Position numbers and translations under genes: made by a program
The notes under the pieces: generated by a model
Databases searched by the model: none
What the model was told of the DNA's origin: nothing
Seen by the model: only the letters and a program-made list of their open reading frames with translations
In this document: in pieces, positions 4,624 through 5,262 of the stretch
How the letters are laid out: each line of letters starts with the position of its first letter
Numbering within the stretch: position 1 is the stretch's first letter
NCBI RefSeq assembly: GCF_055900595.2
Contig: NZ_CM148325.1
Length of the DNA: 64,000 nucleotides
Direction: 5' to 3' (one strand)

Positions 4624-5040
4624 TCTTCTGAATCACCGGGCGACAAAATATAACTGAGTTACAAATAAGTACCAGTCGAATGAGTATTATATTAAGAATT
4701 TTTGAGTATCGCTGATACAACCAGAAAGCAATGCTAGCGCAATATTATAGGGCCAGCAATTGAGATTATTAGCAAAAGCATGTTAAGAATTAATCACCGA
4801 ATTTATATATTAATTATAGTAAGGCAATGAGCTATTTTTGATAGTAAAAATAAAACAAGTTTATTTGATATATTAAATGAAAAAATTAATCTTGATGGCA
4901 GTCTGATTATTGGTGAAGTTTATAGGTCAGTTTTTTTCGCCAGCGGTTAAAGGAATAGAATCGTCGTATGAAAAAAGGGTGTTTTGGGGCGTGTAAAACA
5001 ACATCTTCACCTTAATGGCGATACAGTTGGCTGAGAGTCA

Positions 5041-5247
5041 GCAGTGGGGGCAAATCACCTGCAAATAAACACGGCGCATGCTGGCGCGAATATCGCGGAT
5101 GCGTTCGAGGACAGAAGAACCGACAGGCGGATTCTTCAGTCGCTCATCGTCCATCACAAAACCTTTGATCAGGTATTCCTGAAGCCGATTAAATATTGAG
5201 CAGTAGAAAATATCTGGATTGACTGTATTACAAGGGGTTGGAGAACG
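5041..5247 (-). pseudogene. decayed fragment of a RhuM-like (island-associated) gene abutting the 3' end of selC
   Basis: Minus-strand frame with no start codon reads ...FNRLQEYLIKGFVMDDERLKNPPVGSSVLERIRDIRASMRRVYLQVICPHC*; the KGFxMDDERLK and RIRDIRASxRRxY blocks resemble RhuM-family proteins as I remember them. Confidence 0.35.
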
Positions 5248-5262
5248 TCAGTAGAGGCAAAC

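Follow-up and report, generated by a model that had tools for sequence, protein, structure and literature searches.

Within the window, that is, the whole 64,000-nucleotide stretch of DNA analysed here, the region of interest is organised around selC, an intact gene for tRNA-Sec (UCA) located on the minus strand at 5263-5357. It is the only tRNA gene reported by ARAGORN in the first 12 kb, and it matches Rfam family RF01852 with 83.8 bits at a gathering score of 47. Downstream of selC lie setC (3439-4623, minus strand), encoding a sugar efflux transporter of 394 residues as judged from its open reading frame and the annotations in relatives, and yicL (2405-3328, minus strand). On the other side of the tRNA gene, yicJ and then yicI start from about 5600 on the plus strand. 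This order, selC-setC-yicL together with yicJ/yicI, equals that of K-12.

The tRNA-Sec gene is a classic integration site of pathogenicity islands, and the last 24 nucleotides of selC (5263-5286) represent the core that is duplicated as attR by islands using this site. Neither an integrase beside the tRNA gene nor an attR direct repeat is found here, in agreement with the earlier note, which described selC as intact and free of an island. The 639-bp spacer between selC and setC (4624-5262) contains no ORF above 56 residues and no integrase in the ORF list, and a second copy of the selC 3' end with up to three mismatches is absent across all 64 kb. A search of the spacer, and of the window as a whole, for the degenerate attR repeat that had been suggested gave no match exceeding those of shuffled sequences, and local alignment of the spacer to the island end plus att (~140 nt) of strains LF82 and E69 likewise gave scores no better than shuffles.

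The spacer had also been characterised as about 640 bp of AT-rich DNA. The length is accurate; the strong AT-richness is limited to about 4650-4950, a region upstream of setC with a GC content of 27-36%, whereas the 260 bp closest to selC have about 49% GC. In the setC-proximal part of the spacer, 4624-5026, blastn, tblastn and local alignment detected nothing that matches rhuM, a 165-residue gene of LF82 described below, or the island end with att.

Two further features of the window were observed away from selC. A reverse-transcriptase ORF of 323 residues with a YCDD motif (32904-33875, plus strand) is placed between pyrE (31963-32619) and slmA (33919-34557), in a position where strain E400634 has an annotated 'reverse transcriptase family protein' and which we take to be the site of retron Ec107. 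Downstream of yicI, from about 9650 of the window, a BglG-family antiterminator is annotated in close relatives matching positions 1-12000; in E400634 and LF82 this gene heads a PTS / aldolase / ROK / lyxose-isomerase cluster, which is presumably missing from K-12.

A RhuM-family fragment adjacent to selC

The spacer holds a startless open frame of 69 codons at 5041-5247 on the minus strand, previously noted as encoding a RhuM-like product. Read from 5247 to 5041, its translation includes both sequence blocks that had been quoted as characteristic of the family, KGFVMDDERLKN and RIRDIRASMRRVY. The frame matches the Pfam profile PF13310 (Virulence_RhuM) with E=6.1e-13 and 49.1 bits (gathering score 33.7), frame residues 20-64 corresponding to profile positions 50-98 of 252. 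Moreover, tblastn with the intact RhuM of LF82 (345 residues) aligns residues 121-171 with 41 identities in 51 positions and a single in-frame gap of 8 codons, the check that the earlier note had proposed. With these Pfam and tblastn scores the similarity is far beyond chance, even with six frames allowed for. An NCBIfam search with the fragment returned no match.

The similarity does not cover the whole frame. The frame is open over its 69 codons, but only codons 21-64 (5056-5185) derive from RhuM, and the first 20 codons (5186-5247) are read from a non-coding flank downstream of selC. The 69-codon frame hence combines flank (5186-5247) with relic (5041-5185) and is no gene.

The rhuM relic proper, delimited by Pfam, tblastn and nucleotide alignment to the LF82 gene, spans 5027-5185 on the minus strand. 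Positions 5056-5185 encode RhuM residues 121-171 in frame, apart from 24 nt deleted at 5112/5111 without a change of frame; at 5056/5055 the loss of 8 nt shifts the frame, and residues ~175-183 follow in 5027-5055. Over 5117-5185 the relic and LF82 rhuM are identical at 68 of 69 nucleotides; chance resemblance to RhuM, considered as an explanation of the frame, is ruled out by this identity together with the Pfam E-value and the 41/51 identities. Codons 1-120 and about 184-345 are missing, as is a start codon, leaving ~53 of 345 codons (about 15%). When the remaining RhuM sequence and the 165-residue LF82 protein were compared with the spacer by tblastn, nothing beyond residues 121-183 was recovered. 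The match thus lies above the gathering score of the family, without a full-length domain in an intact ORF, and the partial domain, the deletions and the absence of a start identify the relic as a pseudogene fragment of the RhuM family rather than a functional member.

The relic corresponds to yicT of K-12

The earlier note had assumed the fragment to be shared with K-12, and this is borne out. Judged by position and sequence, the relic is the already known pseudogene yicT (b4653) of K-12 MG1655, annotated at 3836425-3836556 between selC and setC. Both occupy the same place (selC - relic - setC - yicL), are collinear and have the same truncation points, and the spacer is 96.7% identical in the K-12-derived strains DH10B and C600. 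The same stretch carries the PGAP label "rhuM, incomplete" in thousands of genomes; a full-text literature search for yicT returned no relevant paper.

When aligned, the alleles of the window, K-12, E4 and EC17CM2 have the same junctions throughout, both where the flank meets codon 121 and at the 24-nt and 8-nt deletions, so that the decay is older than the divergence of these strains. The alleles differ in detail. K-12 has an in-frame TAA (PGAP note 'internal stop'), reading LV*GF where the window allele reads LIKGF, and it differs by a 1-nt indel close to the 3' end, showing that there is no conservation of the reading frame; in the window, which lacks both lesions, all 69 codons remain open. 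EC17CM2 has a 15-nt deletion in the flank.

Among 5,426 complete E. coli genomes, the spacer is matched in 4,526 and covered to at least 80% in 3,617, nearly all at 95-99% identity. In some genomes, such as strain 2017.15.02CC (contig L087, 3100-6000), the relic is further split by IS1 and IS5 and setC has been lost; PGAP mislabels the relic there as 'hydroxyacid dehydrogenase'.

Alternative haplotypes between selC and yicL

A different arrangement is found in LF82, where an intact gene for the 345-residue RhuM is found 52 nt beyond selC in the same orientation, followed by the gene for a hypothetical protein of 165 residues, for which no Pfam or PADLOC match was found, and then by yicL (L003, 6324-6821 and 6187-8465). 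By blastn the window and LF82 have in common 2405-3357 (yicL plus 29 nt) and 5248-5357 (selC plus 15 nt), and the variable segment in between, 3358-5247, carries setC and the relic in the window and intact rhuM with the 165-residue hypothetical gene in LF82. The latter haplotype, without setC, occurs in 844 genomes, including UTI89 and ST131 strains; setC accompanies the relic and is absent where rhuM is intact.

Downstream of the LF82 rhuM, a remnant of an island end with att (L003 7252-7365) is 80% identical to the attR region of E4 (E=2.6e-24). The same chromosomal interval thus reads selC - rhuM - attR remnant - 165-residue hypothetical - yicL in LF82, with an intact gene and an island-end/att remnant and without setC, compared with the relic and setC of the window. 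The LF82 rhuM belongs to a later, att-bounded layer and is not the copy from which the relic derives. In UPEC957C, the last 43 nt of rhuM directly adjoin an island that carries a retron-type HNH gene and a DUF2441 gene.

A third arrangement, in the divergent Escherichia strain E69, in which yicL is 86-88% identical to that of E. coli, relates to the origin of the 77-nt non-coding flank (5186-5262, minus strand) between selC and the relic. Downstream of selC, E69 has an island end, a first att, a DUF4942 3' remnant, an intact rhuM (97% identical to that of LF82), a 114-nt island end and a second att; then a counterpart of the flank that continues into ATG and 14 codons of rhuM, a 405-residue unrelated gene, and yicL. 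Seen as a whole (L007, 150-3700), three layers are stacked downstream of the tRNA gene: the end of a newer island, a degraded island with intact rhuM, and the stub of an old rhuM. The 405-residue gene, which is cysteine-rich, takes the place of E. coli setC.

The flank of the window is 80% identical to the sequence following the second att of E69, where the counterpart extends ~45 nt further into the rhuM start. Given this likeness, the 77 nt represent the front part of the leader of an old rhuM copy located ~120 nt after selC. The first ~15 nt (5248-5262) are common to the LF82 haplotype as well, and among the loci fetched from other genera and from Escherichia the flank was found in Escherichia only. 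E69, retaining codons 1-14, and E. coli, retaining codons 121-183, carry independent truncations of one ancestral copy. The junction 5186/5185 falls in a GCTT that is common to the leader, as preserved in E69, and to the gene, as preserved in LF82, which suggests that flank and codon 121 were joined by a microhomology-mediated deletion.

rhuM as terminal cargo of selC islands

Islands are present at selC in other strains that carry the relic. In E400634, with a spacer 100% identical to that of the window, the order is yicJ, selC, a tyrosine integrase, an island of ~15.7 kb, CbtA, DUF5983, DUF957, DUF4942, attR, the relic and setC. E4 is arranged similarly, and in both E4 and E400634 the sequence of the window is unbroken through the last 24 nt of selC up to 5286, where the island begins. 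As these islands sit between selC and the relic, what is mobile today does not include the relic.

Relatives of rhuM were surveyed with one genome per species, recovering sequences of 66-98% identity. Of 80 rhuM loci, 26 have a tRNA-Sec gene upstream of rhuM and on its strand, often only 170-900 nt away. The selC core follows the rhuM stop at 84-119 nt in 15 of 84 loci (at 106-119 nt in 13 of the 15), compared with 1 of 78 control regions. An island end of ~110 nt and the selC 3'-end repeat come after rhuM in LF82, E69, Salmonella and Pseudescherichia, and, by sequence match, island end and att are placed directly after rhuM in loci labelled Erwinia, Hafnia, Pseudescherichia, Yersinia and Serratia. 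Taken together, these loci indicate that the usual position of rhuM is at the end of the cargo of P4-type islands integrating into the selC 3' end; Salmonella SPI-3 is included in this pattern.

The occurrence of a RhuM-type gene beside selC in SPI-3, to which the earlier note had referred, is documented: in Salmonella SPI-3 the end closest to selC is occupied by rhuM, and this end, comprising rhuM and sugR, is often deleted in Salmonella serovars (PMC5966662). The Salmonella RhuM in the contigs analysed here is 94% identical to that of LF82. It is preceded by genes for RadC, CbeA, CbtA, DUF5983 and DUF4942 and followed by the selC 3' core 117-118 nt past its stop. In one Salmonella enterica contig (L090, 8001-9200) a perfect core, GACTCCTGTGATCTTCCGCCA, was observed 118 nt after the rhuM stop and before SPI-3-like genes. 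Beyond att, the Salmonella contig encodes an EcpR_N-domain protein, a 932-residue autotransporter, a YqeJ_C protein and a Trans_reg_C regulator, which we take to be the rmbA-misL-fidL-marT order of SPI-3. This arrangement gives the rhuM end of SPI-3 the appearance of a module of its own, bounded by att.

The window is related to both of these systems in part. Its relic belongs to the same family (PF13310) as the RhuM of SPI-3; however, the Salmonella gene is intact and inside an att-bounded island, whereas ~53 of 345 codons are left in the window. P4-type (CP4-57-like) selC islands can likewise carry rhuM last before attR and integrate at the very site that adjoins the relic, but the integrase, the att repeat and the island genes are lacking in the window.

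Discussion

Based on the comparison of the haplotypes at selC, we propose that the fragment between selC and setC is a non-functional relic of the RhuM family, equivalent to yicT, that an old intact copy decayed through deletions, and that newer islands integrate between selC and the relic, a reading in which we have high confidence. According to this proposal, the Escherichia ancestor would have possessed an intact rhuM of ~345 codons about 120 nt downstream of selC, oriented in the same direction as the tRNA gene. In the ancestry of most E. coli, the copy was presumably destroyed by four illegitimate deletions. One, with the GCTT microhomology at its junction, would have removed the end of the leader along with codons 1-120, two more would account for the 24-nt in-frame and the 8-nt frameshifting deletions, and another would have taken everything past about codon 183, where unrelated sequence and the AT-rich upstream region of setC are now found. 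Newer islands would still enter selC between the tRNA gene and the relic, as seen in E400634 and E4, and the present strain happens to have none.

How the old copy arrived is a separate matter. Delivery by an island is the most likely route, as intact RhuM is typical terminal cargo of P4-type selC islands and the gene is accompanied by an att repeat in so many taxa; for the relic itself this step is deduced from its relatives, since neither attR nor island-end sequence is found near it in the window. Conversely, the relic could stem from a resident chromosomal rhuM, inherited vertically beside selC since an early ancestor of the Enterobacterales and taken up by islands only secondarily. Besides the lack of an attR near the relic, such a history would agree with the short distance of 170-900 nt between selC and rhuM in several genera in which the yicI-yicJ synteny is kept, and with the divergence of rhuM from the LF82 gene in Enterobacter, Huaxiibacter and Pseudescherichia, which at 75-83% nucleotide identity resembles that of yicI-yicJ (77-78%). 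However, many genera show the selC 3'-end repeat at a fixed ~110-120 nt past the rhuM stop, and where the island is complete, rhuM is part of the att-bounded unit. In addition, the rhuM genes of LF82 and E69 share 97% identity while yicL reaches only 88%, meaning that rhuM moves horizontally, and closely similar proteins (66-79%) exist in Vibrio, Shewanella and even non-proteobacterial MAGs. We therefore regard a resident origin as rather unlikely, at roughly one chance in four by our estimate.

The earlier note had seen in the fragment the footprint of an ancient integration or excision event. Integration is plausible in the indirect sense given above, through the rhuM-att repeats elsewhere. 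Excision fits poorly, despite the position of the relic beside a site that islands are well known to use. When an integrase excises an island, attB is restored and no piece of an internal gene stays behind; attL and attR are joined and everything in between is removed, but the relic lies beyond the attR of present-day islands, and its junctions are internal to the gene, one of them in a 4-nt microhomology, as expected of illegitimate deletions. That the relic is the scar of an island excised from selC is accordingly the least credible of the histories considered, with hardly any probability left to it.

A further question is whether the relic or its flank has been co-opted, be it for 3' processing or termination of selC, for regulation of setC, or as a small ORF (a GTG-initiated ORF of 39 residues is present at 5038-5157). 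The conservation of the region lends itself to this idea. Relative to K-12, the relic of the window is 96.2% identical (6 differences in 159 nt), the AT-rich part 98% and 4624-5026 as a whole 97-98%, so that the spacer, at 96-98%, somewhat exceeds the ~92% at the four-fold sites of the neighbouring genes setC and yicJ, by little in the case of the relic; moreover, the relic is kept in more than 3,600 genomes. On the other hand, the TAA and the 1-nt indel break the frame in K-12, EC17CM2 tolerates the 15-nt deletion in the flank, and about 840 genomes do without the spacer entirely. Nor do the searches of the region support a function of this kind: Rfam at E<=1 returned only tRNA-Sec over 4400-5700, and promoter- and terminator-like motifs are no more common than in shuffles. 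We hence consider co-option very improbable, and with no start codon, 85% of the gene missing and a frame that is broken in K-12, the relic is regarded as inert. The AT-rich segment at 4650-4950, by contrast with the relic, is presumably regulatory DNA of setC under constraint.

In a wider context, the relic may represent the oldest visible layer of a serial accretion at selC, for which we see about even chances. P4-type islands across the Enterobacterales that are specific to selC would have rhuM as a module fixed at their end, ~110 nt from attR, repeated integration would stack rhuM copies next to the tRNA gene as in E69, and decay would then leave selC-rhuM-attR islets or yicT-like stubs; the sugR-rhuM end of SPI-3 would again be a separate att-bounded module. 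While yicT itself was already annotated, this comparative picture, with rhuM as a terminal module of selC islands and the relic as the oldest layer there, is mildly new.

The function of the intact family members points towards phage defence. RhuM of LF82 matches the PADLOC model PDC-S05 with E=3e-173 over residues 1-343, and a PDC-S05 gene with a Virulence_RhuM domain reportedly lowered plating of T7 and T5 about 1000-fold, one member being reported as protective against T7, T5 and T4 (preprint 10.1101/2024.09.26.614923). RhuM genes are furthermore enriched beside type I restriction-modification loci (PMC9881135). We therefore consider intact RhuM proteins candidate anti-phage defence proteins; searching the PDB with the sequence of intact RhuM turned up no relative of solved structure. 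The full-length match is a property of the intact relatives, which the relic, with about 15% of the gene, does not share, and for the window neither a functional protein nor a role in defence is proposed.

In conclusion, the selC-yicL interval occurs in at least three alternative haplotypes in Escherichia, and their comparison explains the origin of yicT. For the window itself the finding carries little weight, concerning an annotated pseudogene with no expected function in a strain without a selC island. Beyond it, the comparison indicates that the 'virulence gene' rhuM behaves as terminal cargo of islands that target selC and probably serves in phage defence, with consequences for the reading of the left end of SPI-3.
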